Shown here: piece by piece, positions 8,195 to 32,493 of the stretch
How positions within the stretch are numbered: the stretch's first letter is position 1
How the letters are laid out: every line of letters begins with the position of its first letter
From: Longimicrobiales bacterium
Lineage (GTDB): Bacteria; Gemmatimonadota; Gemmatimonadetes; Longimicrobiales; Gaopeijiaceae
Direction: 5' to 3'
Assembly: GCA_041690395.1 (NCBI GenBank)
Contig: JAWLHJ010000004.1
Span: forward strand, 1-64,000
DNA length: 64,000 nucleotides
The notes under the pieces: generated by a model
Told to the model about the DNA's origin: nothing
What the model saw: only the letters and a program-made list of their open reading frames with translations
The model's database searches: none
Made by a program: the position numbers and the translations under genes

Positions 8195-8199
8195 GGCCC

Positions 8200-11100: not shown

Positions 11101-11220
11101 CTGGATCACGCCTTCCTGCGCCACGGCTGGGACGGCGCCCAGCAACATGACAAGGAGCGCGACGGCTACTGCCCTCCCCCTCCCCCTCGCGATGCAACGC
11201 TGACTTCCCGGACTTCTCAT
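8200..11220 (-). CDS. SusC/RagA-type TonB-dependent transporter (copy 1)
   Basis: Signal peptide, N-terminal carboxypeptidase-reg-like domain, LDEIVVTG, PLIYVDGV, DINPADIERIEVIKGAAAATLFG, GNPDLKPERS; AAGGAGG RBS. Confidence 0.9.
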   Translation of the reverse strand: MRSPGSQRCIARGRGRAVAVALLVMLLGAVPAVAQEGVIQGQVTDQATLRPLNSAQVFISGMNIGALSDVRGQYRVEGVPSGQVTVEVRLIGFAAETQTVTVPAGGSVTLDFALRSQAVDLDEIVVTGTGAPAQRRQLGQTINSVGAEELEEAPITGVADALFGRVPGIGGQAMGESGAATAITLRGVASLNTALRNEPLIYVDGVRMENRTYSVGGTATNRLGDINPADIERIEVIKGAAAATLFGTEASSGVIQIFTKRGAVQAPVWTFGIDQQLIHLPNSKWKPQAGYVSASSAVGQSNPALIGTVVTDLPAEDWIDIGHYQNYTMAVRGGSPSIRYSVSGRLQDEDGHSPNHGSGNRSLRTGFDFTHSERFRSAVDMSVVRSDLTASWPSWSSIASDFLLANPANATERFTHGESEMPVAERLTMQDEMVTTNVMLNASLFFDVTDDISATFRVGHNDVVRKRTRFAAEGDYAGRPGVRQIQNRSSYATTLDGSINWSTDLTGSISSTTTVGGQSFWEGINSENAQKSEFSSPTLSTFSGATVISSLTEDQEDVINAGFFVQQQFGFDDRLFLTGGLRMDGNSAFGEDFGLTTYPKVGFSWVLSDYDFFSIPGVESFRLRGAIGASGLQPGAFDAQRTWDPGVFAGGVPQIEPNNLGNPDLKPERSTERELAIEAGLAGGRIGLEAVYFNQTTSDALMSVSPPPSSGFTSTQLRNIGEMQSWGLEFIADARIIESAGLGWDVNASYTYIDQEITDMGGIPDIRLSTRRRWGWLAEGHRPGVLIGPKQDPANPYTLTVADASLLTSTSQIQPNVLRNDDGSEALVVHGDALPSWTVDFGSTFRFGENLSIRTIFTGAGGFLMSNETEVLRQSLGINEFGANTVRILADPASTAEQKAAAAQAYGEKHWAVVPSFFEKGDFLKFSELSVSYDLPLELSQRVGLGRTSISVGGRNLHTFTGYSGLLDPGVSAAGQSLGGSIFESNIDYISAPTPRRYVFSIRTTR

Positions 11221-13268: not shown

Positions 13269-14687
13269 TCAGTTCACGTAGACCGTCCGCGCGATGTCCG
13301 GCGTCAGGTTCGGATTGTTCGAGATCTCGTCCGGCGACGGCGGCCAGCGCAGGTGGACACCCGCGTCCTGGTTCTGGGCAAACCACCGATAGGGCATGAT
13401 CTCGTAGTATCGCATGTCCTGCCAGCGACGCATCTCCATCCAGAACTCGGCTCTACGCTCATGGATGATCTGAGCCTGAATCTCCGCCTCGTCCGCGCTG
13501 GCGAAATCCGGTAGGTCGGAGATCGGACGCGCGGGTGGCCACCCCCTAGAGGCGGGAGCCCAGTCGCTCGCGCTGACACGGGCCCGTGCCGCCTCACGGA
13601 CCTCGTTGATCCAGTCCACGGCCTCGCCAGGCTCGCCGTCGAGCAACCGCGCCTCGGCGATGATGAGCATGGCTTCGGCAGCGCGGCTGATCGGCAACGG
13701 CGCCTCACGCGCGGCGAACTTCAGGTTGAAGGACGTGTTGCCGAGCGCCTCCGCGTAAACCGCGTCCTCCTCATGGGGCAGACGGGGATCCCAGTCACCG
13801 GTCACCGGGTCCTCGACGAAGAGGTAGCTCTCGTCCATCCGGTTCACGCCGCCGAACGGCCCGCCGAGCTCGGCCATGTCGTTCGAGCCGCCCGGGGCCC
13901 CGAACTCGAGCGCCACCTCGTAGTCGGGGTCCGCGGCGAGCGCGGCGAGCGCCGCGGCCTCCGCCTGCGCGAAGAGGCTCGGGTCGTCGTTACCCCGGAG
14001 ATGGAGCTCTTCGAAGTAGAGAGCCCGGTAGGCACGCGCCACCTGTCCGAGCGCGGCGGCCTCGTAGTTCGCGTCACCCGCGGCTCCGGCCACCGTGGCG
14101 GCGGCCTGGAACTTCGTGATGGCGTCCTCGATCACGTCGATGGGACCCCGGAGTCCGTCCTCGGGCCCGTACACGATCACGTTGTAGTGATCCGCCATGG
14201 CCATCCGGGCGACCCCACCGAAGAAGTGGGACTTCGCCACGCGCATGTCTGCCCCCGGATTCGGCACGAGCACCGAGATCCGCTCGACCATCTCGTCGGC
14301 CAGCCACCGGGCCTGCGCCAGGCCCCTCCAGTGTTCTTCCACCGACGAGTTCGACGCGAGGCGGTTGCCCCTCATGGCATCGATGTTCTCGAGCTGCGTG
14401 CTCGGGTGGAAGATCTCGCCGTTGAGCAGGCCGCTCCTGACGTTGAGGCTCGAATAGGTTCCTGTGATGTTGCCCTCGGCCGTGTTCCCGAGCGCATCCA
14501 ACAGCCCGGGCGCGGCGAGATCCTCATCCAGCAGGCTCCCCGGGTTCTCGACGTCGAAGATGCCGTCACATCCGGCGACCGACAGGGCCAAGCCCAGCGC
14601 AAGGGTACCGATGGCGTTCCTCATGATCCAACGCATCCGTCGACTCCCGGTTTTGGTTTCTGTGGTCTCCATGATTCGGGCCCTCAT
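13269..14687 (-). CDS. SusD/RagB-like outer-membrane lipoprotein (copy 2)
   Basis: Lipobox VAGC-DGIFDVENPGSL, similar to copy 1 (CDDIFEVENPGSL); ERRAEFWMEMRRWQD; TGATG overlap with susC2. The start could be 14672. Confidence 0.8.
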   Translation of the reverse strand: MRARIMETTETKTGSRRMRWIMRNAIGTLALGLALSVAGCDGIFDVENPGSLLDEDLAAPGLLDALGNTAEGNITGTYSSLNVRSGLLNGEIFHPSTQLENIDAMRGNRLASNSSVEEHWRGLAQARWLADEMVERISVLVPNPGADMRVAKSHFFGGVARMAMADHYNVIVYGPEDGLRGPIDVIEDAITKFQAAATVAGAAGDANYEAAALGQVARAYRALYFEELHLRGNDDPSLFAQAEAAALAALAADPDYEVALEFGAPGGSNDMAELGGPFGGVNRMDESYLFVEDPVTGDWDPRLPHEEDAVYAEALGNTSFNLKFAAREAPLPISRAAEAMLIIAEARLLDGEPGEAVDWINEVREAARARVSASDWAPASRGWPPARPISDLPDFASADEAEIQAQIIHERRAEFWMEMRRWQDMRYYEIMPYRWFAQNQDAGVHLRWPPSPDEISNNPNLTPDIARTVYVN

Positions 14688-17662
14688 CAGAAGGTGGCCC
14701 GGAGGGAGAAGACGAACCGCCGGGGAGGCGGTGTCTTGAGGTAGTCGACGTTCTGGGTGAAGACGTTGTCACCCGTCCCGGCCTCGAGCCCGCGGGTGCC
14801 CGGGTCGATCCAACCCTTCTTGTAGTCGCTGAAGTAGTCGGAGAAGACCACGACGTTGCGAACGCCCAGGCTCATGGTCATGCCCGACGCGCCCAGGCGG
14901 GACGCGAAGGTCTCCGGCAGACGATAGGCGAGATTGGCCTCCGCCCAGCGCAGGTAGTCGCCGGCGTAGATGGTGTTGCTGATGACGCCGTTGTGCTTCC
15001 GTCCATACTCGTCCACCAGGGCCTGCCTCTCCTCGAGAGGCACGTTCGAGTCCGGGTCCAGGGCCTGCTCGAGGCGGGCCACGAGCGGGCTGTTACCGAT
15101 GGCGTTGCGCAGGTGATCGGTCTCGTTGGAGACGATGAAGCCACCCGCGCCTTCGAAGACGTTACGGAACGAGAAGTTGCCGAAGTCCATGACGCTGCCG
15201 ATGTCGACGGTCCAGTTCGGCTGCGGCCGCCCGATGATGGCGAGGGAGTCGCCCCCGTTCGCGGCCTGGAGCAGATTCGGCGCGATGTCCTGGCGACTGG
15301 TGATCGTCTCGATGGGGCCGGAAAGGACATACGGTTGGTCCGGATCGACGATGGGCGCGATCCAGATCCCCGGCCACAGCCCCTCGTAGAGCGAGTGGAA
15401 GCGCCGCCGGCTTCCGAGGCGCATGTCGCCCAGGCCACCGAGGTCGTCGACCCACTGCTTCAGGTAGGTCGGGCTCAACGTCAGGGTCCAATTGAGCCCG
15501 GAGCCCTGGATGACCTGGGTCTGCGTGATCAGCTCGAGTCCCCAGCTCTTCAGCGTCCCGAGGTTCTGGAGCTGGGTCTCCGTGAACCCGGTGCCTGGCG
15601 AAGGCGGCACCGGCAGGAGCGCGTCGGTGGTCGTCTGGTTGAAGTAGATCAGCTCCGCGCCGAAGCGCCCGCCGAACATGCCGGTCTCGAGGGCGACCTC
15701 GATCTCCGTGGAGCGTTCCGGCTTGAGCTCCGAGTTGCCGAGATTCTCGGGCGTGATGTAGCCGCCGATGACACTGCTCTCGGGCTCCCACGTCCGCTGG
15801 GCGTCGAACGCCCCAGGCTGCAGGCCCGAGGAGCCGACGGCCGCGCGCAGCCTGAGCTCGTCCATGAAGCCGACGTTGAAGAAGTCGTGGTCGGAGACCA
15901 CCCAGGAAAGGCCGGCTTTGGGGTAGGCCTGGAGGCCGAAGTCGTCACCGAAGGCCGAGTTGCCGTCGAAGCGCGCGCCGACCGTGAGGAAGAGCAGGTC
16001 GTCCAGACCGACCTGTCCCTGCGCGAAGACACCCGCGTTGATGACCTCTTCGAAGTCCTCGGAGACGCCGGTGATCTGGGCGCCACCGCTCAGCGTCTTC
16101 AACGTCGGGGAGCCGAACTCCCGCACGGAAGACGATTCGGAGCTCCTCGCCTCGGCGAAGCTCTGACCGCCGAACGTCAGACTACCGGTCAGCCGGTTCG
16201 TGAGCTGGTTCTCCCAGTGCGTGCTGAAGTCGATCGTGGTCGTCGACCGCTGCCTGTTGGTCACACTGCGCGTTCCGGTGATCGACTCCGGCACGACGCC
16301 CTGCGGGAAGAAGCCGTCCTGCCGCGTATCGACCAGGTTGTACCCGACCTGCAGGGTCGAGCTGAGACCGTCCGCCCACTGATACCGGAGCTGGCCGCTC
16401 AGCAGCGTGTTGATGGAGTACTGGTAGTTCTCCGTCACGACCGAGGCGAGCGTCGGCGTGAACGTGCCGTTCGGGTTGCCCTCCGTCGCGAGCAGAGGGT
16501 TGCCGAGCATCAGGTTGCCGTAAAGGTCACCCCAGTTCGGCGTGGCCGACTGCAGGTTGCGGCGCACGACGCTCACGCTCACGTCGCTGGTGAGCCTCTC
16601 CGTGTGCGTGAAGTCGAAGGCCGCGCGCACCGACTGCATGGAAAGCTCGTTGTTCGGAGAGGGATTCACCTCGTCCATGACCCGCCCGGACACGTAGTAG
16701 CGCGTGCCCGGCGAGCCTCCCTGCACGGACAGCGTGTAGTTCTGGTGGTACCCGAACTCCTCGTAATCGCCGTAGGGATGGTCGCAAACGAGATTGTTCG
16801 CGTCCGAATCGTAGCCGCAGTTCTCCTCGAACTCCCGCGGGAACTGGAGATGCTGGAGGTCGGTGGAGAAGCTGTAGACCGGGGCGCCGGTCTGCCCGCG
16901 CTTGGTGAAAATCTGGATCACGCCACTCGAGGCCTCGGTGCCGAACAGTGTGGCGGCCGCCGCGCCCTTGATGATCTCGATGCGATCGATGTCCTGCGGG
17001 TTGATGTCCCCGAGACGGTCCGTCTGCACGGACTCGGCGCTCTCGGGGCTGTTCTCGATCCGCACGCCATCCACGTAGATCAGCGGACCCTGCCGCTGGC
17101 TGATGCTGGACGTGCCGCGCAGGATGATCTGGCTACCGGCGCCGGTCTGGCCACCGGACATCAGCCCCCGGGCACCCGGAAGGCGTCCCACCAGCGCGTC
17201 GCTCACGTTGCTGATCGGCGCCGTGTTGAGGGCTTCGCTCGACACCGATGTGATCGTCTGGCCGAGACGTCGGCGCTGCGTCGGCGCTCCGGTACCGGTC
17301 ACGACGATCTCATCGAGATCGAGGGCGACCGACTCGAGCGCCAGGTCCACCTCCGTGGTCCCGCCCGCGGTCACCGCCACCTCCTGCGTCGCCGTCCCGA
17401 ACCCGATGGACGACACCGAGAGGGTGTGCGTGCCGACCGGCACGGAGAGGAGCAAGAAGCGCCCATTCGCCTGGGTGAGGCTCCCGACGTTCAGGTCCTG
17501 AATGAAGACCTGGGCGCTGGCGACGGGCTGCCCTGAGGATTGCACGGTGACCCGACCGGTCACCGAGCCGGTCTCCTGGGCATGGAGAGCCCCGACCGGG
17601 AGGAAGGCGAGGGCGACGAACGCCGCCGGGATCCATGCCGCGCGTACTAGCCTCGGACGCAT
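14687..17662 (-). CDS. SusC/RagA-type TonB-dependent transporter (copy 2)
   Basis: Same motif set as copy 1; C-terminal Phe (FVFSLRATF); AAGGAGG RBS. Confidence 0.9.
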   Translation of the reverse strand: MRPRLVRAAWIPAAFVALAFLPVGALHAQETGSVTGRVTVQSSGQPVASAQVFIQDLNVGSLTQANGRFLLLSVPVGTHTLSVSSIGFGTATQEVAVTAGGTTEVDLALESVALDLDEIVVTGTGAPTQRRRLGQTITSVSSEALNTAPISNVSDALVGRLPGARGLMSGGQTGAGSQIILRGTSSISQRQGPLIYVDGVRIENSPESAESVQTDRLGDINPQDIDRIEIIKGAAAATLFGTEASSGVIQIFTKRGQTGAPVYSFSTDLQHLQFPREFEENCGYDSDANNLVCDHPYGDYEEFGYHQNYTLSVQGGSPGTRYYVSGRVMDEVNPSPNNELSMQSVRAAFDFTHTERLTSDVSVSVVRRNLQSATPNWGDLYGNLMLGNPLLATEGNPNGTFTPTLASVVTENYQYSINTLLSGQLRYQWADGLSSTLQVGYNLVDTRQDGFFPQGVVPESITGTRSVTNRQRSTTTIDFSTHWENQLTNRLTGSLTFGGQSFAEARSSESSSVREFGSPTLKTLSGGAQITGVSEDFEEVINAGVFAQGQVGLDDLLFLTVGARFDGNSAFGDDFGLQAYPKAGLSWVVSDHDFFNVGFMDELRLRAAVGSSGLQPGAFDAQRTWEPESSVIGGYITPENLGNSELKPERSTEIEVALETGMFGGRFGAELIYFNQTTTDALLPVPPSPGTGFTETQLQNLGTLKSWGLELITQTQVIQGSGLNWTLTLSPTYLKQWVDDLGGLGDMRLGSRRRFHSLYEGLWPGIWIAPIVDPDQPYVLSGPIETITSRQDIAPNLLQAANGGDSLAIIGRPQPNWTVDIGSVMDFGNFSFRNVFEGAGGFIVSNETDHLRNAIGNSPLVARLEQALDPDSNVPLEERQALVDEYGRKHNGVISNTIYAGDYLRWAEANLAYRLPETFASRLGASGMTMSLGVRNVVVFSDYFSDYKKGWIDPGTRGLEAGTGDNVFTQNVDYLKTPPPRRFVFSLRATF

Positions 17663-18933: not shown

Positions 18934-19178
18934 GCTGACTCCTGGTTGTGGTGACAGTCGCCCTCGAGGCGTCCCTACCAGATACGGTGCCCGCACTCGA
19001 ACTGCAAGAGGCGGCTCATGTCGACGGGTTCGGCTCGACGCGTTCGGCCACGAGTGCGGGCCGGCCTTCCCCCGACCCCTCGACTGCTTCTGGCGCCTCG
19101 CGGGTCCCGCGAGCATCTTGCGCACCGCCAGGCGCCCCGCGTCGATCGCCCGTTCGCTCCCCCTCACCCACCCCATCC

Positions 19179-20185
<1,007 letters not shown>

Positions 20186-20189
<4 letters not shown>

Positions 20190-21112
20190 CGTCCTCCGAG
20201 CCCGACCAGCTCCTATCCCCCGAATTCCTCGACGGGCTCGACGACCTGGAGTGGGCCGCCCGCATGGTGGCGCGCGGCCTGACGCACGGGGTTCATCCGT
20301 CCGCCCTCCAGGGACGGAGCGGCGAGTTCGACCGCCACCGCGCGTATCAGCAGGGAGACGATCTCCGCCATCTGGATTGGCGCCTGCTCGCGCGCACGGA
20401 CCGCCTCTACGTCCGCCGCTTCCGGGAGACGTCCAACCTCGAGACCATGTTCGTCGTGGATGCCACCCCCTCCATGGACTTCTCGGGCGAGGGGGGAAGC
20501 CCGACCAAGCTGAGATGTGCCGTGCTGCTCGCGGCCGCACTCGGGCACGTGGCCCGTGGCGCGGGCGACCTTCCCGGTCTCGTCGTGACCGGCGGGCCGG
20601 ATGGGGAGCCCGCCGCGCTCCTCCCCGCCCGGGCGGGCCGTGAGCGCTGGCGGGCCTTCCTCCACGCGCTCCAGCGCACCGTGCCGGGAGCGCCGGCATC
20701 GCTCGCCCGGGCGGTCGAGCTGACGGGCGATCTACTCCCTCGGGGCGGCCGCGTGGTCATCCTCTCGGACTTCCTCGACGAAGACGATCTTCCCGCGCTC
20801 GTGAAGGCGACCGGGCAGCTGCGGGCCGGGGGCGCGGAGGTGATGGCCGTGCGGATCCTCACGCCGGAGGAGCTCGGTGAGAAGGGCGGCGACGACGCGC
20901 TCTGGGCCGACCCCGAGGATCCCGAGCGCCCGGTTCCGGGAGCGCCCTCCAAGGACGCGGCCTACCTCACCCGTCTCCACGCCTACTACCGGACGTGGGC
21001 TGCCCACCTCCGGGAGCAGGGCGTGCTCTGGCACGAGGCGCGCACGACGGACCCGTTGATCCCCCTGGTCCGCGCATGGATCCGGGAGGGCGCCGGCGGG
21101 CAGCCGCGGTGA
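20186..21112 (+). CDS. DUF58 (VWA-like) protein
   Basis: EFDRHRAYQQGDDLRHLDW..LARTDRLYVRRF; MIDAS-like DATPS; ILSDF; TTGA overlap with moxR. Confidence 0.9.
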
Positions 21113-22500
21113 TCGATCTCGCGCGACCCGGCTTTCTCTGGGCGGGAGCGCTGCTCACGCTCGGGCCGCTCATCCTGCACCTGCTCCGGCCGGTCGAGCG
21201 ATCCAGGAAGGTGTTGCCCACGAGCCGCTTTCTGACGCCCGATCCGAAGCGCCGCGTCCGGCTGCACCGCATGCCGGACGAGCGCACCCTGCTGCTCCTG
21301 AGAATGCTGCTGTGCCTTCTGCTGGGCGCGGCGTTCGCGGGAGTCGGATGGGTGGGCGCCGAGCGCGGCGTCGCGACGCTCGTCGTGGTCGACGGCGGGG
21401 GTGCGATGCGCGACGACTGGGCGCGAGCGCGAGACGTACTCGTGGGACAGCTCGATGGACGGAGCGCTCACGTCGTGATCGTGCGTCCGACGTCCGGTGC
21501 CCTGCCCGACCTCGAGCGGCTGGAGGCCGACATCCCGTCGGAGCCCCGCTGGGCCGAGCTCTCGCCCGGGATCGACGACGGAAACGTCCGGCTGGCGCAC
21601 CTGCTACGCGCGGTTCGGACCGCCGCGGAGCGTACGGTCGGCTACGACTCGATCGCGGCGATGGTTCTCACCGATCCGTCCTGGCGAGCCTGGTCGGCCG
21701 GCAGCGCGACGCTCCGCGAGCGCCTCTGGCCGGGGCGGATCCGGTTGGTGGTGCCCGCGGGCCGGACGGCTCCCGAGGGGGGCGCCGCGGGGGGGGAGGG
21801 TGCTCGGGCGGCCCCGCTCACCGTCGCGCTCCGAGCTCCCCCGGCGCTACGCCGCCCGTTCGCCGAAGCGCTCTCGGTCCTGGGGGCGACCGTCGATACG
21901 ACGGTTGCGGCGCCGTCATCCGGCCCCGACACGTCGACCGGTCTGCCCGGCCGGGACACTCCGGGCGAGATCATCCTGTCGGTCGGTCCCGACGCCGACG
22001 GATGGGACGGGCTCTGGCTGGCCGGCGAAAGGGACGCCGGCGCTCCCCCACACGACGCCTTTCTCCTTCTGGACGGGCGGACATTCCCGGGTGCGGGCTC
22101 GGCTCCCGGCGGGACCCCTGCGCCCGGAACGACGGTATCTCTCCTGAGGGTCGGCGGCCGGCCGGCCGCCGCGGCCCGGCGTGCGGACGCCGGGTGTCGA
22201 GTGGTCCTTCCCCTCGACCCGGAAGCACCGATCACGGGCTCGGCGGACCTACCCCTCGTCCTGGAAGGGGTGCTGGAGGCCGGCTGCGGCGTTCTACCCG
22301 AGCCACCGGGCGCGGAAGCAGCGTTCCGCCGCCTGCTGGAAGAAGGGAGCTACCCGGCGACGGTCGCGACAGCGGAGATCCGGGACGCGGGGGCAGGACG
22401 ACCGCTCGGGCGGTGGATTCTCCTGCTCGCGCTCCTGATCGCCGTGGCGGAGACGTGGACGAGCCGCGGGATCGAGGCGAGACGGCATGGGCGGGACTGA
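21109..22500 (+). CDS. BatA N-terminal domain membrane protein with a degenerate VWA-like region
   Basis: PGFLW..LGPLILHLL..LPTSRFL..LLLLRMLLCLLL; C-terminal TM LLLALLIAVAETW; GTGA overlap. Confidence 0.8.
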   Translation: MIDLARPGFLWAGALLTLGPLILHLLRPVERSRKVLPTSRFLTPDPKRRVRLHRMPDERTLLLLRMLLCLLLGAAFAGVGWVGAERGVATLVVVDGGGAMRDDWARARDVLVGQLDGRSAHVVIVRPTSGALPDLERLEADIPSEPRWAELSPGIDDGNVRLAHLLRAVRTAAERTVGYDSIAAMVLTDPSWRAWSAGSATLRERLWPGRIRLVVPAGRTAPEGGAAGGEGARAAPLTVALRAPPALRRPFAEALSVLGATVDTTVAAPSSGPDTSTGLPGRDTPGEIILSVGPDADGWDGLWLAGERDAGAPPHDAFLLLDGRTFPGAGSAPGGTPAPGTTVSLLRVGGRPAAAARRADAGCRVVLPLDPEAPITGSADLPLVLEGVLEAGCGVLPEPPGAEAAFRRLLEEGSYPATVATAEIRDAGAGRPLGRWILLLALLIAVAETWTSRGIEARRHGRD

Positions 22501-22524
22501 CGTAACGGTACTGACGAGAGCGGC

Positions 22525-25500
22525 ATGAACGGATCGACGACCGAGCTGGGCGGCTTCCTGGCCACATCGCGCGCCCTGTGGCGTCGCCGCACGGTAGCGC
22601 GCGGCGCCCTCCGGGGCGTCCTGGCCGGCGCCTGTGCCGTGGTCGTCCTTCTCGGAGCCGCGGCGCTGGACCTCGTTCCGGCGGCCTCGCAGCCTTGGTT
22701 GAGGTGGGCGCCATTGCTGCTCGTTGCGGTCCTTCCCTTTCTCGGGCTCCTGAGGGCCCTCGTTCGAACTCCGAGCGAGCGTTCGTTCGCGCTCAGGGCC
22801 GAAGAAGCGGTCCCCGAGCTCGAACACCTGCCGACGACGCTCCTCGATCTGCCGCAGGATCACCCATACGCGCCCGACCTCGAGCGTCGTGCCGGGGACC
22901 GGCTCCGTGGCGTCGGGCCCGGCCGCCTATTCGATCCGATCTGGTCCCGCGGCAGGGCACTCGGCGGAGGCATGATCGCCCTGCTGGCGTTGGTCGCGCT
23001 GACGACCTCCGGCGGGCCGACGACGGTGTGGGCGTCATGGGGAGGGTCGGTGGATCTCGGGCAGGGCCCCGAGCCGACGGCCGCGTCCGCGCCAGACGCG
23101 CGGTCGGAGCCGCTCGCAAGCCTGAGGGTCCGGGTCGTTCCACCGGACTACACCGGACTGTCCGTGACGGAGACGCCACTCGACGGCGTCGTCACGGCGA
23201 TCGCGGGCAGCCGCGTCGAGCTGAGCGGAACCGGGGGCGGGCCGGGCCTGGACGTGGCCCTCGTGCGCGGCGAGGGAGAGCGGGCGTCGCTGCCGTTGCG
23301 GCGGGAGTCGGCGCGCTGGGCGTCCGGCTGGACGCTCGAGGCCGGCGACCGCGGGGTGGTGCTGACCGACGACGAGGGGCGCGAGCGGGTCGTTCCGCTC
23401 TCGGCCCTGGACGACCCGCCGCCGACGGTCGAGCTCGTCGAGCCGGACCGTGACTTCGTGCTCGCGACCGGCACCGGCGCCATCGACTTCCATGCGCGGG
23501 CGACTGACCCGCTCGGTCTCGCCGAGTTCCAGCTCACCTGGGTCCACACGCGCGGGAGCGGTGAGTCGTTCGACTTCCGCGAGGGAACGGCGTCGTGGAC
23601 GTCACGCGAGCAGACGGCCGATGGGGTGGAGGGGCGCCTGGTGCTGAACCTCGCGGACCTGGAGCTCGGGCCTGGCGACGTGCTCCATCTCAGGGCGGTC
23701 GCCACCGACCGCAACGACGTCACCGGTCCGGGGACCGGCGTCTCCGAGACCCGCCAGATCCGGATCATCCGCGAGGGCGAGGAGATGTCGGTCGACGCCC
23801 TCGTCGGCTTCCCGCTCGAGCTCGATCAGCGACCGGTCCTGTCCCAACGCATGATCCTCCTGATGACCGAGGAGCTGCTCGAACGGGCCCCCGAGCTGTC
23901 CGCGGCGGCGTTCCGCGCCGAGGCCGAAGCGATCGGCGACGAGCAGGCGCGACTCCGGATGCAGGTCGCCGATCAGATCTACTCGCGCGCGACCGGAGCC
24001 ATGGAATCGGTGGAGACCCATCTGGGACACGAGGGCCTCTCGCCGGTCGCCGAGGCCGACGCACATGCCCACGAGCCACCCGCTGCCCCCGAGCCCTCCG
24101 GATCGCGATACGGCGTCGCGAGCGTGTTCGACCCGGCCAGCGAGGAGCCTTCGGAGCGCGAGGCCGAGCCCTTGCCGCCCGACCCGACCGAGGACCCGGA
24201 CCCCGCCGGAACGCAGGTCGGCAGCTACGAGGTCGGCGGCGCCGGGGCACTGCCCACCGGCTTCGGCGAGCTCGACGACCTGGGCCACGACCACGACTCC
24301 GACCCGGTGCTCTCGGTCAACCGGCCCCTACTGGCGATCCACGACGCGATGTGGGCGTCGGAGGGCGAGCTCCGCGTGATCGACCCTGCCGCGTCGCTCC
24401 CGCATCAGCGACTCGCGCTCGAGCGTCTCCAAGCGCTGCGCGATAGCGAGCGGGTCTTCCCGCGCGGCCAGGTGACCGTGCCACCGGTGGACGTGGCGGC
24501 GGCCCGGGGCACCGGCGAGGTGGACGACGCCGATCCGGCCCACCGCTCGGCCTGGTCCGGAGAGCGCGAGGCCGCTCGCTGGCTCCGCCGGCTCGAAGAG
24601 GTGCTCGGCGACCTCGCGAACGGTGCGCCGACCCTTCAGGGCGCCCTCGAACGGCTGGCCGTCGAGCTCGTTGCCGATCCCGCGGTCGATCCGGCGGTCG
24701 TCGCCCCTGTAGCCCGCGCCACCGAGCGGCTTCGGGCGGGTGACGCGGACGGCGTGCGGACCGACCTGCTCGAGGCCCGGGCCCTGCTCGACCCGAGGGG
24801 CGAGCGCGTCGCGTCCGACCCGGTATCGTCCTGGCCGGGCTCGCCTTCCAGCGCCCTGGCGGTTCCGAACTCCCCGGGGCCCGACGGTCCGCCGTCGGAC
24901 GATCGGCCGGTGGCGGAGGCCTCCGCGAAGCCCTTCGTGTTCGCCACGCTCCGCTACGAGTCGGGCAACTGGGACTCGGCTCCGCTCGTCCCGCAGAATC
25001 TGATCCACACGCTGGCGCAGTACACGGAGCTGCCGGTCGCTCCGGAAGGGGTGGTGGTCGACCTGTCCTCGAGGGAGATCTTCCAGTACCCGGTGCTCTA
25101 CCTGACCGGACACCTGCCGGTGCGCTTCTCCAGCGAGGAGAGCCGCAACCTCCGGGAGTACGTCGAGCGTGGCGGCTTCGTCTTCATGGACGACCACAAC
25201 CACGACATCGACGGCGCCTTCCACCGGACCGCCACCGCGGAGCTCGAGCGCATCTTCGGCCGGGAGGCTCTGGAGGCGCTCCCCGCCGATCACGAGATCT
25301 ACCGGGCCTTCTTCCACTTCGAGGACGGGCCGCCGATCACCGCGCACGAGCTCTCCGGTTGGGGAGACGGCCTGATTCACCGCGAGCTCTTCGCGGTCGT
25401 GCGCGACGGCCGGATCGGTGTCCTGTACTCGAACAAGGACTACTCGTCGGAGTGGAGCTACCACGCCGTAAACAAACGTTTCCTGGCCGTGGACAATACC

Positions 25501-25542
25501 CGGTTCGGCGTCAACATCCTTCTCTACGCGCTGACCCGGTGA
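22525..25542 (+). CDS. Membrane-anchored DUF4175-like scaffold fused to a C-terminal DUF4159 domain
   Basis: N-terminal TMs; PPDYTGL, DPPPTVELVEP, LGPGDVL..ATDRN. From about 24931: LRYESGNWD, YPVLYLTGH, GGFVFMDD, RFGVNILLYAL. One uninterrupted 1005-aa ORF. Confidence 0.75.
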   Translation: MNGSTTELGGFLATSRALWRRRTVARGALRGVLAGACAVVVLLGAAALDLVPAASQPWLRWAPLLLVAVLPFLGLLRALVRTPSERSFALRAEEAVPELEHLPTTLLDLPQDHPYAPDLERRAGDRLRGVGPGRLFDPIWSRGRALGGGMIALLALVALTTSGGPTTVWASWGGSVDLGQGPEPTAASAPDARSEPLASLRVRVVPPDYTGLSVTETPLDGVVTAIAGSRVELSGTGGGPGLDVALVRGEGERASLPLRRESARWASGWTLEAGDRGVVLTDDEGRERVVPLSALDDPPPTVELVEPDRDFVLATGTGAIDFHARATDPLGLAEFQLTWVHTRGSGESFDFREGTASWTSREQTADGVEGRLVLNLADLELGPGDVLHLRAVATDRNDVTGPGTGVSETRQIRIIREGEEMSVDALVGFPLELDQRPVLSQRMILLMTEELLERAPELSAAAFRAEAEAIGDEQARLRMQVADQIYSRATGAMESVETHLGHEGLSPVAEADAHAHEPPAAPEPSGSRYGVASVFDPASEEPSEREAEPLPPDPTEDPDPAGTQVGSYEVGGAGALPTGFGELDDLGHDHDSDPVLSVNRPLLAIHDAMWASEGELRVIDPAASLPHQRLALERLQALRDSERVFPRGQVTVPPVDVAAARGTGEVDDADPAHRSAWSGEREAARWLRRLEEVLGDLANGAPTLQGALERLAVELVADPAVDPAVVAPVARATERLRAGDADGVRTDLLEARALLDPRGERVASDPVSSWPGSPSSALAVPNSPGPDGPPSDDRPVAEASAKPFVFATLRYESGNWDSAPLVPQNLIHTLAQYTELPVAPEGVVVDLSSREIFQYPVLYLTGHLPVRFSSEESRNLREYVERGGFVFMDDHNHDIDGAFHRTATAELERIFGREALEALPADHEIYRAFFHFEDGPPITAHELSGWGDGLIHRELFAVVRDGRIGVLYSNKDYSSEWSYHAVNKRFLAVDNTRFGVNILLYALTR

Positions 25543-27206
25543 GCGACGCCCCGACTCCGGCGAAGCGCGAAGGCCGCGACCTCGCGGGCCTGCTGCGCGG
25601 CATCACGCTCGGCGTGCTCCTGGCGCTGATCCTCGTTGGACTTCCGGGGAGCGGTACGGGCTCGGAAGGGGTTCTGGGCTCGCCTCCGGCCCGGGCGGTC
25701 TCCGCCGCGTCCCTCGAGGCGGAAGGCTGGGGCGACATCCTGGAGCACGCCGCGGAGGCACCCCTGACGGCCGTCGTCTCCGGACGTCCCCCGCCCGTCG
25801 TCGTCGAGCCTCCCCGGCGGGTGCGGGCGGAGCGGACATCGGCCCTGCGGGTCCGAGCGCTCGAGCGGGCGGAGATCACGCTCGGGCACCCCGACGGGAC
25901 CGCGGACACACTGCGACTCGAGGCCGGCGAGATGGGCGCGTTCCTGCTCCGGCCCTTCTCCCCGGGCTGGAGGTCCTGGCGCCTGGGCGTCGTGCCGGAC
26001 GGCCGGGAGCCCTCCGGGACGGAATGGGCCGCGCTCGTCCGTCCCGCCCGGCCGGTCCGGGTGCTGGCCATCTCGGGACCGCCGGGCCCGGAGCCCCGTG
26101 CGGCCATGAGGGCGCTCGAGGAATCCGGCGAGGCCGTGGAGGGCTGGACGCGCCTCGGGAGAGGGCTGTGGATCGGGCATGGCGGAGAGGATCTCCCCAC
26201 CGACCCCGTGGCATACGAGGGCTTCGACGTCGTGGTGCTCTTTCCCGGCGTCGCCGTGCCCCCTGCGTCGGCACGCGCGCTGCTCGCCGCGGTGACGGAT
26301 CAGGGCAAGGGACTCCTGCTGGCCGGCGCGACAGGCGATGCTCCCGAGCTCCAGACCGTCATCGCCGGCGTCACGGGGCGAGCCGCCTGGAGCGACGAGA
26401 TCGCCGTCGCCGCGGATAGGCTGACCTGGCGAATCCCTCCCGAGGTGACGCCCCTCCCGCCGCTGACGCTCGATACGCGCATGCTCGTCTCCGCGACCCG
26501 CCCGCCCGACGACCCCGTGTCGGCGCGGCCGGCCCTGGCCCTCGGCACCCTCGGACGGGGACGTGTGGGGGCGCTGGCCCTCCCCGACACGTGGATCTGG
26601 CGCATGACCGCCGGCGCAGAGGAAGGACACCGAACCTTTTGGCGCGACCAGGTCTCATGGCTGGCGGAGGGCTTCCAGGAGGACCCGATCCTGGAGCTTC
26701 TGGCGGCCGACGTGCGCCGCGGTGAGCGGGTACTCGTGCGTCGTATGGATGGTGGGCCGGATCCGGAGGCCCCGGGCGACGTTGCGTCGGGCCCACCGCC
26801 CGCGTTCAACGTCCGCGGCCCGAGCGAAGCGTGGACCGCCGAGGCCGCTCCCATCCGCTCGACCCCGACGGCGAGGATGTCGCTGGCGGCGTTCGCGGCC
26901 ACCGAGACGGGGGCCTATGTGCTCGGCGACGACGCCACGCCGGAGGCCGCCCTCGCGGCCGACCGCGAACCCGTGTTGGCCGTCGGAGTCAGATCAGAAA
27001 GCGCCCCGGGGCTCGATCCGGAGGGCCGTCTCGCGCGCATCGCGCTCGCTTCACCCGGCGGATCGGTGGTCGTCGACGCGGCCAGCGCCGCCGGCATCCC
27101 AGCAGGCACCGGCCCCGGGTGGCCGTGGCGGGCGTTCATCTTCTCGCTTCTCGCCGTCCTCCTGACCGCCGAATGGCTCCGGCGCCGCCTGACGGCCCGC
27201 CCGTGA
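25539..27206 (+). CDS. Membrane protein of MoxR/BatA clusters, probable non-catalytic GATase-like domain
   Basis: GTGA overlap; VRVLAISG, FDVVVL, GKGLLLAG, GRGRVG..DTWIWRM..HRTFW; C-terminal TM with AEWLRRR. Confidence 0.65.
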   Translation: MSDAPTPAKREGRDLAGLLRGITLGVLLALILVGLPGSGTGSEGVLGSPPARAVSAASLEAEGWGDILEHAAEAPLTAVVSGRPPPVVVEPPRRVRAERTSALRVRALERAEITLGHPDGTADTLRLEAGEMGAFLLRPFSPGWRSWRLGVVPDGREPSGTEWAALVRPARPVRVLAISGPPGPEPRAAMRALEESGEAVEGWTRLGRGLWIGHGGEDLPTDPVAYEGFDVVVLFPGVAVPPASARALLAAVTDQGKGLLLAGATGDAPELQTVIAGVTGRAAWSDEIAVAADRLTWRIPPEVTPLPPLTLDTRMLVSATRPPDDPVSARPALALGTLGRGRVGALALPDTWIWRMTAGAEEGHRTFWRDQVSWLAEGFQEDPILELLAADVRRGERVLVRRMDGGPDPEAPGDVASGPPPAFNVRGPSEAWTAEAAPIRSTPTARMSLAAFAATETGAYVLGDDATPEAALAADREPVLAVGVRSESAPGLDPEGRLARIALASPGGSVVVDAASAAGIPAGTGPGWPWRAFIFSLLAVLLTAEWLRRRLTARP

Positions 27207-27275: not shown

Positions 27276-28898
27276 ATGAAACGACGTGATTTCATCCGTC
27301 ACTCGGCCGTAGCGGCCGCGGGCCTGACGGTCTTCCCCCGCCCCGAGCTGCTGCACGGTGTGCTCTCGCCGGTCGCGCACGGGCCGGTCGTACAGGACGC
27401 CGCCAGGCGCGAGCTCGCGTCCCGCGCGTTGGAAGCGGCCCGCTCGGCGGGCGCCGACTGGGCGGACATCCGTATCAACACCAACCGCAACCAGGGGATC
27501 TCCACGCGGGAGCGGCGGATCACCGGGGTCTCCGACAACGTCACCTCCGGCTTCGGCGTCCGCGTGCTGGTCGACGGCACCTGGGGCTTCGCGGCGAGCG
27601 GGAACGTCACGAACGACGAGGTCGTGCGGGTGGCCCGGCAAGCCGTGACGCAGGCCCGGGCGAACCGTGCGGCGCAGCGCGAGCCCGTCCGGCTCGCTCC
27701 CGCCGACGTCGAGCCGAACGGCGTGTGGAGGAGCCCCATCCGCACGGATCCGTTCGAGATCCCGATCGAGGACAAGGTCGAGTACCTCTTCGCGGCGAAC
27801 GAGGCCGCCCTTACCGTCTCGGGCTCCCGCTTCGTGAACTCGTCGATGTTCTTCCTCCGAGAGGACAAGTTCTACGGGAACTCCGAGGGGACCTTCACGG
27901 ACCAGACCATCTACCGGGCCTACCCACGGATGACGGTCACCGCCGTCTCGTCTGACGGAGCGGACTTCCAGTCGCGCGCATCGACGGACATCGCGCCCCG
28001 GGCGCTGGGCTGGGAGCACGTCACGGACTCCGACATGCTCGGGCTCGCCCCGATGTTCGCCGAGGAGGCGGTCGAGAAGCTGTCCGCCCGCTCCGTCGAT
28101 CCCGGGGAGTACGACCTCGTGCTTCTCCCCACCCACCTCTGGCTCACGCTCCACGAGGCCATCGCGCATCCGACCGAGCTCGACCGGATCATGGGCTTCG
28201 AGGCCAACTACGCGGGCACCTCGTTCATCTACCCGCTCGAGGACTACCTCGGGACGTTCCGCTACGGCCCCGAGTTCATGAACGTCGTTGGCGAGCGCTC
28301 CTCGCCGGGCGCGCTCTCCACCGTCGGTTGGGACGACGAAGGGGTCGCTCCGCGGGACTACCACATCATCCGCGACGGCGTGCTGAACGACCTGCAGACG
28401 ACCCGCGAGCAGGCGCTCTGGCTGGAGGACTGGTACCGCAGCCAGGGCCGGGAAGCGCGCTCCCACGGGAACTCCTACGCGCAGTCGTGGGCGGACGTGC
28501 AGTTCCAGCGCATGCCGAACATCAACCTCGAGCCCTACCCCGACCGGGACGTCTCGCTCGAGGAGCTCATCGGCGACATCGACCGCGGCATCATCATCGA
28601 TGGGGACGGCTCGTTCTCCATCGATCAGCAGCGCTACAACGCGCAGTTCGGCGGACAGACCTTCCGCGAGATCCGGAACGGACGTGTGGAGGGCATGCTC
28701 AAGGACGTGGCGTATCAGATCCAGACGCCGCAGTTCTGGAACGCCATGGACCTCTGCGGCGGTCCCAGCACGTACTTCATGGGCGGCGCCTTCGGCGACG
28801 GCAAGGGTCAGCCAGCGCAGTCCAACGCCATCTCGCACGGGTGCCCCGCGACCCGTCATCGCAACATCACCGTCATCAACACAGCCAGGAGCGTCTGA
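27276..28898 (+). CDS. tldD: TldD-family metalloprotease with Tat signal (copy 1)
   Basis: MKRRDFIRH signal; GFGVRVLVDGTWGFAAS; HEAIAH zinc motif; GWDDEGV; RMPN; C-terminal GKGQP..HGCP. Confidence 0.9.
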   Translation: MKRRDFIRHSAVAAAGLTVFPRPELLHGVLSPVAHGPVVQDAARRELASRALEAARSAGADWADIRINTNRNQGISTRERRITGVSDNVTSGFGVRVLVDGTWGFAASGNVTNDEVVRVARQAVTQARANRAAQREPVRLAPADVEPNGVWRSPIRTDPFEIPIEDKVEYLFAANEAALTVSGSRFVNSSMFFLREDKFYGNSEGTFTDQTIYRAYPRMTVTAVSSDGADFQSRASTDIAPRALGWEHVTDSDMLGLAPMFAEEAVEKLSARSVDPGEYDLVLLPTHLWLTLHEAIAHPTELDRIMGFEANYAGTSFIYPLEDYLGTFRYGPEFMNVVGERSSPGALSTVGWDDEGVAPRDYHIIRDGVLNDLQTTREQALWLEDWYRSQGREARSHGNSYAQSWADVQFQRMPNINLEPYPDRDVSLEELIGDIDRGIIIDGDGSFSIDQQRYNAQFGGQTFREIRNGRVEGMLKDVAYQIQTPQFWNAMDLCGGPSTYFMGGAFGDGKGQPAQSNAISHGCPATRHRNITVINTARSV

Positions 28899-28901
28899 GT
28901 C

Positions 28902-30245
28902 ATGGCCTTTCTTTCCGAAAGCGAAGCCCGGGAGCTGACACGACGCGTGCTGGCGCTGTCGCAGGCGGACCATTGCCGGGTCAACATCAGCAGCGACATG
29001 GAGGGCAACACCCGCTTCGCCCAGAACCAGATGAGCACCTCGGGCGACATCCAGAACACGACGCTAACCGTGAACAGCGCGTTCGGGCTGCAGGTGGCGT
29101 CGTCCACGACGAATCGCTTCGACGATGCGTCGCTCGAACAGGTCGTCCGCACGTCGGAGGCGCTCGCGCGCCTCGCGCCGGAGGACCGCGAGTACATGGG
29201 CGAGCTCGGGGCCCAGGCGTACCCGGACTCCCGGTCGTACTACGAGTCCACGGCGAACCTCGAGCCGGACGTGCGGGCCCGCGCCATCGCCGAGGTGACC
29301 GAGCAGTCGGTCGCCGAGGACCTCATCTCCACGGGCTTCCTGACGCACCGGTCGGGCGCCAGCTGCGTGGCGACCTCCGCGGGGCTGTTCGCGTACACCA
29401 CCGACAGCCGGGCCAACTTCACGACGACCATCCGCACCCCGGACGGGACGGGGTCCGGCTGGGCGGGGACCAGCGTCAATGACTGGAACGACCTCAGGAC
29501 CGGCGAGCTCGGGAGTATCGCGGTGCAGAAGGCGATCCAGAGCCGGGAGCCCCGCGACGTCGAGCCCGGCCGCTGGACGGTGGTCATGGAGCCGACGGCG
29601 GTCGGGAACATGGTCAACCTGATGATGAACTCGCTCTCGGCACGCGCCGCGGACGAGGGGCGCTCGTTCTTCTCGTCGCCGGGTGGCGGGAACAAGATCG
29701 GAGAGCAGTTCGTGGATTCGAGGGTCACCATCCACTCCGACCCCGAAGACCGGCGCATCCACTCCACTCCCTTCAACAACGAGGGCCTGCCCAACCGCCG
29801 GACCGTCTGGGTCCAGGACGGCGTTCTCCAGGAGCTCAACTACGACCGCTACTGGGCCGAGCAGAACGGCCGGGAGCCCACGGGCTTCCCGTCCGGCTGG
29901 TACATGGCCGGTGGGTCGGACACGCTCGAGGAGATGATCGCGTCGACGGAGCGGGGACTGCTCCTCACGCGCTTCTGGTACATCCGGGGCGTGGACCCGC
30001 GGACGATCCTGTTCACGGGGCTCACCCGCGACGGGACGTTCCTCATCGAGAACGGGCGGATCTCGCACCCCGTGAAGAATCTGCGCTGGAACGAGACCCC
30101 CATCTTCATGCTCAACAACATCGAGATGATGGGCGCGCCCGTGCGGATCTCGTCCGGTGAGTCCGCCGGCCTCACGCCGACCGTGATCGTGCCGCCGTTG
30201 AAGGTGCGCGACTTCGCCTTCACGTCGACCTCGGACGCCATCTAG
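28902..30245 (+). CDS. TldE/PmbA-family partner subunit, no signal peptide
   Basis: NTRFAQN, EPGRWTVVMEP, FNNEGLP, TGLTRDGTFLIENG; no HExxxH motif. Confidence 0.85.
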   Translation: MAFLSESEARELTRRVLALSQADHCRVNISSDMEGNTRFAQNQMSTSGDIQNTTLTVNSAFGLQVASSTTNRFDDASLEQVVRTSEALARLAPEDREYMGELGAQAYPDSRSYYESTANLEPDVRARAIAEVTEQSVAEDLISTGFLTHRSGASCVATSAGLFAYTTDSRANFTTTIRTPDGTGSGWAGTSVNDWNDLRTGELGSIAVQKAIQSREPRDVEPGRWTVVMEPTAVGNMVNLMMNSLSARAADEGRSFFSSPGGGNKIGEQFVDSRVTIHSDPEDRRIHSTPFNNEGLPNRRTVWVQDGVLQELNYDRYWAEQNGREPTGFPSGWYMAGGSDTLEEMIASTERGLLLTRFWYIRGVDPRTILFTGLTRDGTFLIENGRISHPVKNLRWNETPIFMLNNIEMMGAPVRISSGESAGLTPTVIVPPLKVRDFAFTSTSDAI

Positions 30246-30259
30246 AAGGGGCAGCAGCC

Positions 30260-31882
30260 ATGAAGCGACGAGACTTCCTCCGACACTCCGCCGTGACCGC
30301 GGCGGGCCTGACGGTCCTCGGCCGTCCGGAGCTCCTCCACGGTGTGCTGTCTCCCGTCGCGCACGGCCCCGTCGTGCAGGACGCCGAGCGACGGGACCTG
30401 GCCGAGCGCGCGCTCGAGGCCGCACGGTCCGCGGGGGCCGAGTGGGCCGACGTGCGGATCAACACGAACCGCAGCCAGGGGATCTCGACCCGCGACCGCA
30501 GGATCACCGGGGTGGCCGACAACATCACGTCGGGCTTCGGGGTGCGGGTGCTCGTCGGCGGCACGTGGGGCTTCGCCGCGAGCGGGACGGTGACGCGCGA
30601 CGAGATGGTGCGGGTCGCTCGCCAGGCCGTCGCCCAGGCGAGCGCGAACCGGGCCGCGCAGCGCGAGCCCGTCCAGCTCGCGCCGGCGGAGGTGGAGCCG
30701 AACGGCGTCTGGCGGAGCCCCATCCGTACGGACCCGTTCGACATCGCCATCGAGGACAAGGTCGAGTACCTGTTCCAGGCGAACGAGGCGGCGCTGGCGG
30801 TATCCGGAGCGCGGCTCGCCTCGTCGAACCTCCGCTTCCTGCGGGAGGAGAAGTTCTACGCGAACAGCGAAGGGACGGTGACAGACCAGGTCGTCTACCA
30901 GTCGTATCCGACCATGAGCGTGACCGCGGTCTCTTCCGACGGCTCGGACTTCCAGTCGCGGAACTCGACCGACATCCCGCCGCTCGCCCTCGGCTGGGAG
31001 CACGTGGTCGACTCCGACATGGTGGGGCTGGCCCCGATGTTCGCCGAGGAGGCGGTCGAGAAGCTGTCGGCCCGCTCGGTCGAGCCCGGGGAGTACGACC
31101 TGGTGCTCCTCCCGAGCCACCTCGGCCTGACGCTGCACGAGTCCGTCGCGCATCCGACCGAGCTCGACCGCATCATGGGCTTCGAGGCCAACTACGCGGG
31201 CACGTCGTTCATCTACCCGCTCGAGGACTACCTGGGCAGCTTCCGGTACGGCCCCGAGTTCATGAACGTCGTGGGCGAGCGCTCGACACCGGGCGCGCTC
31301 TCCACTGTCGGCTGGGACGACGAAGGGGTCGCTCCGCGCGACTACCACATCGTGCGGGACGGCGTCCTGAACGACCTGCAGACGACGCGCGAGCAGGCGC
31401 TCTGGCTGTCGGACTGGTACGAGAGCCAGGGTCGCGAAGTGCGCTCGCACGGCAACTCCTACGCGCAGTCCTGGGCGGACGTGCAGTTCCAGCGCATGCC
31501 GAACATCAACCTCATGCCGTATCCCGATCGCGACGTGTCGGTCGAGGAGCTCGTCAGCGACATCGACCGCGGCATCATCATCGACGGGCGGGGCTCGTTC
31601 TCCATCGACCAGCAGCGCTACAACGCGCAGTTCGGCGGCCAGACGTTCCGCGAGATCCGGAACGGACGCGTGGAGGGCATGCTCAAGGACGTCGCGTACC
31701 AGATCCGGACGCCGGAGTTCTGGAACGCCATGGACCTGTGTGGCGGGCCGAGCACCTACCAGATGTACGGCACCGTCGGTGACGGTAAGGGTCAGCCGTC
31801 ACAGTCGAACGCGGTCACGCACGGATGCCCCGCGACACGGCACCGCGGCATCACGGTGATCAATACGGCCAGGAGCGTGTGA
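30260..31882 (+). CDS. tldD: TldD-family metalloprotease with Tat signal (copy 2)
   Basis: Same length as copy 1 (540 aa), about 86% identical by manual count; HESVAH motif. Confidence 0.9.
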   Translation: MKRRDFLRHSAVTAAGLTVLGRPELLHGVLSPVAHGPVVQDAERRDLAERALEAARSAGAEWADVRINTNRSQGISTRDRRITGVADNITSGFGVRVLVGGTWGFAASGTVTRDEMVRVARQAVAQASANRAAQREPVQLAPAEVEPNGVWRSPIRTDPFDIAIEDKVEYLFQANEAALAVSGARLASSNLRFLREEKFYANSEGTVTDQVVYQSYPTMSVTAVSSDGSDFQSRNSTDIPPLALGWEHVVDSDMVGLAPMFAEEAVEKLSARSVEPGEYDLVLLPSHLGLTLHESVAHPTELDRIMGFEANYAGTSFIYPLEDYLGSFRYGPEFMNVVGERSTPGALSTVGWDDEGVAPRDYHIVRDGVLNDLQTTREQALWLSDWYESQGREVRSHGNSYAQSWADVQFQRMPNINLMPYPDRDVSVEELVSDIDRGIIIDGRGSFSIDQQRYNAQFGGQTFREIRNGRVEGMLKDVAYQIRTPEFWNAMDLCGGPSTYQMYGTVGDGKGQPSQSNAVTHGCPATRHRGITVINTARSV

Positions 31883-32493
31883 AGAAGGACGCCGAGACGG
31901 AGCTCGAGTCCGCAGGCGCGCCCCAGCCGGTGACCCCGAACGCGCCGACGCGGTCGTTCCGGTGGCGGACCTGGCTCGAGTGGGCGTTCACGCTCGGCGT
32001 GCTGGCCTTCGCCGTGCACCGGCTCGGCCCACAGCTCGGTGCGCTCGCCGGGGTCGGACCCGACCTCGGGCGGGCTCCGGACTTCACGGTCGTCACGCTC
32101 GACGGTGACACGCTGCGGTCGGCCGAGCTCGAGGGCCAGGTCGTCGTGGTCAACTTCTGGGCGACGTGGTGCGGCCCGTGCCGTCTCGAGATGCCCTCGC
32201 TCCAGTCGCTTCACGAGGACCGGGCCGACGAGGGCGTCGTCGTGATCGGGCTCTCCACCGACGTCGGCTCCGCCGAGCCGATCCGGGCCTACGCCGAGGA
32301 GCTCGACATCACCTTCCCCGTCGCCCGCGCGACGAACGATCATCGACGTGCCTTCGGCGGCATCCAGGGGATTCCGACGACGTTCCTGATCGACCGAACC
32401 GGCGTCGTGAGGCACCGCGTCGTGGGCTACTTCACCCCCCCGGCGCTCCGACTGGCGGTCGGGCGGCTCGTGGACGAAGGCCCGCGCCCTTGA
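31879..32493 (+). CDS. TlpA/ResA-type thiol-disulfide oxidoreductase
   Basis: VVVNFWATWCGPCRLEMP, GIPTTFLID; N-terminal membrane anchor; GTGA overlap with tldD2. Confidence 0.9.
   Translation: MKKDAETELESAGAPQPVTPNAPTRSFRWRTWLEWAFTLGVLAFAVHRLGPQLGALAGVGPDLGRAPDFTVVTLDGDTLRSAELEGQVVVVNFWATWCGPCRLEMPSLQSLHEDRADEGVVVIGLSTDVGSAEPIRAYAEELDITFPVARATNDHRRAFGGIQGIPTTFLIDRTGVVRHRVVGYFTPPALRLAVGRLVDEGPRP

Follow-up and report, generated by a model that had tools for sequence, protein, structure and literature searches.

The closest described relative of the system reported here is the TldD/TldE (PmbA) heterodimer of Escherichia coli (MEROPS M103; PDB 5NJ5, 5NJ9 and 5NJC; Ghilarov et al. 2017, PMC5810440). 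The stretch of DNA that we analyzed, hereafter the window, comprises positions 1 to 64,000 of contig JAWLHJ010000004.1 (GenBank assembly GCA_041690395.1) from a Longimicrobiales bacterium of the Gemmatimonadota, and contains one tldE gene lying between two tldD genes (Table 1), which we call W-type and G-type after the residue at position 289. The fold, the HExxxH motif, the tether residues and the combination of a catalytic subunit with a motif-less partner are common to both systems. However, the window copies are only 21-24% identical to E. coli TldD, have Asp in place of Cys454 and carry a predicted twin-arginine (Tat) export signal, and the locus differs from that of E. coli in its two catalytic subtypes per TldE and its linkage to a MoxR/DUF4159 operon. 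Both copies score above the cut-off for Pfam PF01523, PF19290 and PF19289 (PmbA_TldD domains 1-3), but reach just 26.5 and 37.9 bits against a cut-off of 513 with NCBIfam NF008006, the E. coli-type TldD equivalog, and thus are not E. coli-type orthologs. Their nearest named homologs are in the Gemmatimonadota.

Other members of the superfamily also depart from the E. coli pattern. In the available text on ammosamide biosynthesis, Amm12/Amm13 is a heterodimer that selectively removes a C-terminal dipeptide (PMC12424672), a precedent for a sequence-selective TldD/E which supports a difference in specificity at the locus described here. BipI is presented in the accessible part of its report as a TldD-family enzyme working alone (PMC12707348). 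Both are pathway enzymes of biosynthetic clusters, likened to the window proteins by description; the same portions of these papers mention no partner-sharing paralog pair, and a motif search in the supplement of PMC12424672 gave no match. The lincosamide pairs LmbIH/LmbQ and CcbIH/CcbQ (PMC4351081, as far as its available text goes) belong to the PmbA_TldD superfamily and are again likened by description, but are Streptomyces pathway proteins, unlike the window locus. The nearest match in gene content is an uncharacterised operon of Stenotrophomonas maltophilia with two TldD, which may be D+D or D+E, and a MoxR-like ATPase; the accessible text reports it in a transcriptome, down in biofilm, and does not cover export, subtypes or partner (PMC7688217). 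A search of the open-access literature located no paper on a Tat-exported TldD or on TldD paralog subtypes, although subscription papers, notably Vobruba et al. 2022, could cover these. What the window locus adds is a subtype signature, a 289/503 swap and a gene conversion tract.

We favor, with reasonable though not strong confidence, the reading that the locus encodes two Tat-exported TldD/E heterodimers which have one TldE in common and prefer different substrates. The first-pass annotation of this DNA had described two 540-residue TldD proteins without indels that flank a single TldE and differ at about 73 positions. The exact count is 73 amino acids (86% identity) and 271 nucleotides (83.3% identity), the gene order, coordinates and types are as claimed, and the four motif pairs that it quoted are all present. 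The differences cluster beyond chance (16 per 40-residue stretch, permutation p=0.002), but the densest block is at residues 181-245, in the N-terminal domain and not beside the catalytic motifs. Similarly, the long identical tracts exist in the protein, but at the DNA level the longest identical run is 42 nt. This short run, together with bridging contigs from independent soil runs, led us to reject assembly collapse or artefact: the junction of tldE and tldD-G is bridged by X1 record 6 (30104-31175) and X2 record 12, and that of tldD-G and the downstream tlpA by X1 record 7, while no listed contig covers the entire stretch. In addition, a G copy 97% identical to that of the window occurs in another assembly (P0005).

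By comparison of their sequences, the copies with W289 and those with G289 represent subtypes of long standing. A recent duplication, one origin suggested earlier, does not fit the saturated synonymous sites in codons 1-245 and 499-540. Matches to the window TldD protein were found in 37 of 151 genomes of the family, many of which hold two or three copies. The two types, assigned by residue 289, do co-occur in other genomes, a check that the annotation had proposed: within the family both are present in eight genomes, G000, G136, G043, G091, G030, G036, G039 and G023, and they also co-occur in G331; in other genomes a W copy is paired with a copy having Phe or Ala at 289. Ten G copies from nine genomes form one clade (Shimodaira-Hasegawa-like approximate likelihood ratio test 96; quick tree). 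With the groups defined by residue 289, 21 of the 73 differences are diagnostic of subtype when compared with 11 other W copies and up to 9 other G copies, namely those at 72, 79, 110, 186, 190-192, 211, 212, 214, 215, 220, 235, 240, 242, 286, 289, 444, 503, 505 and 506. A pair from another assembly (P0006/P0009) and the window pair have 18 sites split by type and 10 split by genome, and over codons 181-245 the window G copy shares 91% identity with the G copy P0006 but 69% with the window W copy.

The window's exact G lineage is narrow, since a strict G-type DNA motif was detected in 3 of 301 genomes of the phylum, all in the window's family; none of four same-genus genomes has a match to the W protein. 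G types of the Bacteroidota are 45-48% identical to that of the window and have in common with it only 289, 444 and an aromatic residue at 503. Their signature may be convergent or may be an ancient one on converted scaffolds, which look alike here.

Three of the diagnostic positions vary together. Among 152 homologs, an aromatic residue (Phe, Tyr or Trp) occupies position 503 in all 21 sequences with Gly289 versus 3 of 99 with Trp289, and the six independent pairs all point in the same direction (p=0.031). In this set Arg444 accompanies 46 of 49 non-Trp289 sequences versus 16 of 103 with Trp289; about 10 of 13 independent pairs agree and none is opposite (p about 0.002), with at least 15 changes between Trp and non-Trp at 289 on the tree. 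Within a partly overlapping set of 121 sequences, Gly289 is found with both Arg444 and Tyr503 in 17 of 17 cases and Trp289 with Arg444 in 0 of 77. More distant representatives possessing HExxxH (n=119) behave likewise: Gly503 occurs in 13 of 21 with Trp289 but in 0 of 64 with Ala, Gly or Ser at 289, 53 of the latter having an aromatic residue or His. A mutual-information scan ranked 503 as the second-best partner of 289 (z 5.6), its top global pairs having the look of phylogenetic noise. Residues 289 and 503 probably pack together, the ring being passed from helix to clamp; the swap may leave the fold intact yet move the wall, with no simple opening of the pocket.

The subtype residues have been retained in spite of exchange between the two genes. 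Gene conversion, raised by the annotation as a second origin of the identical tracts, is well supported by synonymous identity, synonymous divergence (dS) and topology tests. In codons 1-245, the same codon is used for 107 of 195 shared residues (52% expected from codon usage, p=0.23), whereas in codons 246-498 this rises to 177 of 220, or 80% (57.6% expected, p=6e-13); synonymous sites are saturated again in codons 499-540. dS is 0.35 within codons 246-498 versus 0.88-1.17 outside, and pairs taken across genomes show no step in synonymous identity (means 0.58 and 0.61). With 20 family sequences, the approximately unbiased test rejects a single G-copy clade for the tract 246-498 (p-AU 0.0004) and does not reject it for codons 100-245 (p-AU 0.84); the two genes of G000 group together as sisters in the tract tree (support 99). 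The G copy has W-type residues at 348 and 539, as is expected after conversion from W to G, and W289G and D444R are retained inside the homogenised tract. From these sequence data, strong conversion is seen mainly in the window's lineage, whose two tldD are neighbors. It is likely that conversion holds the shared scaffold alike and that selection holds the subtype residues apart.

The AlphaFold2 model of the G copy, built from an alignment of 111 sequences, has a mean predicted local distance difference test (pLDDT) score of 92.3 and its best match is E. coli TldD (Foldseek E 6e-36; 5NJF chain C, Z 35.3, root-mean-square deviation 2.9, 456 aligned). The HExxxH motif lies at 293-298 in helix 285-300 of both copies (HEAIAH and HESVAH); H293, E294 and H298 align to H262, E263 and H267 of E. 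coli, and W289 to G258. Asp508 aligns to Cys454 and is present in both copies and in all 124 ungapped homologs (of 128). The available text of the E. coli study notes that Asp may stand in for Cys454 in Gemmatimonas (PMC5810440). The counterparts of E270, D272, K456 and R362 are E301, D303, K510 and R412, the first three of which are invariant, and R412 nearly so, across the 111 sequences.

In the same portion of that study the S1' walls consist of H262, W256, V259, V463 and V465, the S2 walls of F273, V396, I398, K456 and H267, and the channel mouth of R232, R305 and K446 (PMC5810440). The equivalents in the window TldDs are H293, H287, L290, I/V519 and H521 for S1' and A310 (or R304), I449, Q451, K510 and H298 for S2. 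By profile alignment residue 289 falls between W256 and V259, two of the S1' residues, and precedes the first His by one turn. In matrix metalloproteases, S1' is gated by the residue four positions ahead of that His. Residue 444 aligns to F391, which precedes G394 of the substrate-binding strand by three residues, and would therefore lie toward the prime side; residues 501-506 run from the equivalent of K446 at the channel mouth to that of the metal ligand C454. Residues 186, 190, 192, 212, 214 and 220 alternate along one side of the N-domain sheet, the side that would line the cavity. By homology, then, the subtype differences would map to prime-side strands, channel and cavity face.

Only three Tld genes were found in the 98%-complete genome (tblastn, PF19289). 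Elsewhere, a single tldE accompanies the tldD genes in 25 of 29 genomes with at least two tldD, including the single-contig genomes G045, G165 and G213, and the remaining 4 have three tldD and two tldE; this search covered 33 genomes, 29 of them preselected for at least two tldD, at E 1e-10, a threshold which a distant TldE family could escape. Within the order, the tldD directly before tldE is W-type in 33 of 33 cases, and a non-W tldD holds that position in 0 of 27 with visible downstream DNA (0 of 9 for G copies), so that the second copy lacks a dedicated partner gene. In Bacteroidota and Gemmatimonadaceae loci outside the order (L086, L098, L140, L147-L149), G types do stand directly before tldE, some of the Bacteroidota arrays reading G-W-E-W-E, and the G state is therefore compatible with TldE. 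Both TldD copies would thus share the single TldE.

Read directly from the sequence rather than with a signal-peptide predictor, both TldD N-termini have RRxF and a hydrophobic stretch, neither of which is present in TldE. RRxF, scored as a pattern only, is found in 132 of 135 N-complete TldD homologs versus 0 of 104 TldE, and tatC is present in the window's genome. The locus thus has the sequence features of a Tat substrate with a hitchhiking partner, namely a signal on TldD, none on TldE and a Tat system. Since RRxF occurs on TldD only and tatC is present, we infer that the folded TldD/TldE heterodimer is co-exported through Tat.

The third metal ligand also varies with export. In a tally that ignores phylogeny, 8 of 12 RRxF-bearing representatives have Asp and 77 of the 79 that lack RRxF have Cys, as does L173, an actinobacterial relative of W type with no signal (41% identical to the W copy). 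The Asp ligand may be an adaptation to an oxidising periplasm.

We picture the system as follows. The W and G TldD would compete for the single signal-less TldE, each folding with it in the cytoplasm and then carrying it through Tat. In the periplasm the heterodimers would thread unfolded peptides through a channel to the zinc site, as in E. coli, with His293, His298 and Asp508 as the predicted ligands and Glu294 as the base. The core S1' and S2 walls would be common to both heterodimers, the prime-side exit and channel differing between them. In the G type the aromatic ring beside S1' would be carried by the clamp strand (Y503) instead of the central helix (W289), position 444 would change from Asp or Ser to Arg, and the cavity-face charges would shift by loss of R214 and gain of R192. 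Because an Arg is gained at 444, the cavity-face charges are moved and the ring is shifted, the G type would favor, on the prime side, acidic residues or a free carboxylate.

Several observations weigh against a difference in preference and against parts of the evidence for it. The claim of different substrate pockets made at first is weakened: all S1' and S2 wall equivalents are identical in both copies except for I519V, which is non-diagnostic, and W289G is offset by G503Y, a swap which may preserve packing rather than alter the pocket; what stands is that the diagnostic residues lie just outside the core. E. coli TldD/E binds peptides through the backbone and is barely sequence-specific, according to the available text (PMC5810440). 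Of the 18 BLOSUM62-negative changes, 8 are diagnostic and 10 are not, the latter being lineage noise. Pairwise sliding-window ratios of nonsynonymous to synonymous divergence gave no sign of positive selection (0.14 overall, at most 0.4 in every window tested). The structural model is of the G copy only and the residue placements come from a profile alignment at 24% identity and predicted secondary structure; the pairs counted as independent are, owing to conversion, less so than the test takes them to be; and the same-genome excess of identity in other groups is small (about 0.5 to 3.5 points). It is conceivable, though in our view unlikely, that both heterodimers cut the same peptides, the subtype residues forming mutually compensating structure and the copies being kept for dosage, stability or regulation. 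The unchanged walls, the family-wide 289/503 compensation and the relaxed specificity in E. coli all suit this explanation, as does the separate locus of the G copy in most relatives, where separate regulation is possible. Here, however, the genes are in one predicted operon and yet the signature is kept inside a converted tract, R444 repeatedly accompanies the loss of W289, and three of four groups have non-W copies that are better conserved at 181-245 than the W copies, as would fit a retained function.

Two further explanations concern the partner and the substrate. The G type might have no need of TldE, forming either a homodimer or a W/G pair of TldD subunits that has two active sites, given that no G copy in the order directly precedes tldE, that E. 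coli TldD can homodimerise (PMC5810440, accessible text) and that BipI is described as active without TldE (PMC12707348, accessible text), which also tells against shared-partner heterodimers. We think this improbable: G types directly precede tldE in the several loci named above, the C-terminal barrel, which is much of the E. coli interface, is nearly identical in both copies (92% at 246-498), and the available text describes E. coli TldD as inactive by itself and as forming an unstable homodimer (PMC5810440). A role for one or both subtypes in hydrolysing a non-peptide amide such as an N-acyl group, without trimming of peptides, seems to us very improbable. Identity of the W type is 41% with a cytoplasmic TldD from an actinobacterium but only about 24% with E. 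coli TldD, and a lincosamide pair of the CcbIH/CcbQ type reportedly has N-deacetylase activity; judging from the title of Vobruba et al. 2022, TldD/E N-deacetylases exist. However, Pfam and annotation of the neighboring window genes revealed no biosynthetic cluster around the locus.

Returning to two heterodimers of different preference, we would extend this reading, quite tentatively, to a self-compartmentalised peptidase of the periplasm that changes its specificity by swapping catalytic subunits on a shared TldE. A second subtype, without Trp289, with Arg444 and with an aromatic residue at 503 if Gly289 is present, would have repeatedly arisen or been kept in Gemmatimonadota, Acidobacteriota and Bacteroidota, selection holding it apart in the face of continuing conversion. 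Residues 289, 444 and 503 would then be a specificity code of exported TldD/E enzymes, of which the Arg type reads acidic residues or C-termini.

The tldD and tldE genes stand at the end of a predicted operon in which the junctions from MoxR to the 555-residue protein are overlapping or short, and many relatives keep the linkage of tldD/E to MoxR, DUF58, BatA and DUF4159 genes. No sigma-70-like promoter was found at the locus and terminators were not in excess; contigs from RNA runs touch the locus, which is no measure of expression or co-transcription.

Table 1. Features of the tldD/tldE locus and of adjoining genes (positions in the window)
Feature	Position	Strand	Remarks
MoxR AAA ATPase	19167-20189	+	Pfam; upstream part of predicted operon 19167..27206
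DUF58/VWA protein	20186-21112	+	Pfam; same predicted operon
BatA-domain protein	ends 22500	+	Pfam; same predicted operon
DUF4159 fusion	22525-25542	+	Pfam; same predicted operon
555-aa membrane protein	25539-27206	+	No Pfam match; same predicted operon
tldD, W-type (W289, D444, G503), 540 aa	27276..28898	+	RRxF signal; HExxxH 293-298; Asp508 at third-ligand position
Predicted Tat signal of tldD-W, about residues 1-37	27276..27386	+	Sequence read directly
Codons 181-245 of tldD-W, densest subtype-specific block	27816..28010	+	N-domain strands 184-202, 207-224, 231-235
Codons 246-498 of tldD-W, inferred gene-conversion tract	28011..28769	+	Synonymous identity, dS
W289 through HExxxH (HEAIAH), tldD-W	28140..28169	+	Pairwise comparison, profile alignment
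G503 to Asp508, tldD-W counterpart of clamp strand	28782..28799	+	Equivalent positions
Asp508 codons of both copies	28797-28799 and 31781-31783	+	Predicted third metal ligand
tldE/pmbA, 447 aa	28902..30245	+	Without HExxxH or signal peptide; sole genome copy found
tldD, G-type, 540 aa	30260..31882	+	G289, R444, Y503, T505, V506, N190-L191-R192, Q214-S215, P240-L242
Predicted Tat signal of tldD-G	30260..30370	+	Sequence; model pLDDT low at 11-35; tatC in genome
Codons 181-245 of tldD-G, subtype-specific block	30800..30994	+	91% identity to G copy P0006
Codons 246-498 of tldD-G, partner tract	30995..31753	+	G289 and R444 (31589-31591) retained
G289 through HExxxH (HESVAH), tldD-G	31124..31153	+	Pairwise comparison, profile alignment
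Clamp strand Y503 to Asp508, tldD-G	31766..31783	+	Strand 501-510 in model
TlpA/ResA-like thioredoxin	31879..32493	+	GTG start overlaps tldD-G stop

The arrangement of the genes varies among relatives. Of the family loci retrieved, the window alone has the order W-E-G on a single strand, and in L045 (G036) and L150 (G331) the G copy adjoins tldE on the opposite strand in convergent orientation. Bacteroidota arrays L137, L139, L142 and L146 have a G-type tldD followed by a W-type tldD and tldE, often with a second W/tldE pair and DUF4159. An F-type tldD at L055 (G045:C1:2501932-2503563) contains one in-frame TGA, its match being otherwise intact, and may be a pseudogene, a sequencing error or a case of readthrough. 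L065 (G053:C1:2792374-2795733) carries a tandem of two TldD-like genes with Tat signals, which lack HExxxH and share about 36% identity with the W copy, and after them a tldE-like frame that is fused or long; from their sequences these are possibly non-catalytic exported TldD proteins.

Among the neighboring genes, the Atlas neighbors of the 555-residue membrane protein are unnamed clusters, one of which has GATase1_like in 10% of its members. A TlpA-like gene lies near tldD/E in few other loci (L104, L130 and L151), for which reason its link to tldD/E may be incidental. Divergent from the MoxR operon are two tandem pairs of a TonB-dependent receptor and a SusD-like protein on the minus strand (6890-11220 and 13269-17662), the second identified by Pfam and the first by resemblance.

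The physiological role of most TldD/E proteins is obscure, and the model enzyme is regarded as almost blind to sequence. A pair that is 86% identical, in one operon, probably with one partner and with some 20 subtype residues, is a clean system in which to study whether, and by what route, a TldD/E gains specificity; if both dimers cut alike, it would be an ordinary duplicated peptidase with compensating changes. The locus is also a clear bacterial case of gene conversion sparing a few functional sites, and an exported TldD/E would offer a route to its role within the uncharacterised MoxR/DUF58/BatA/DUF4159 module.

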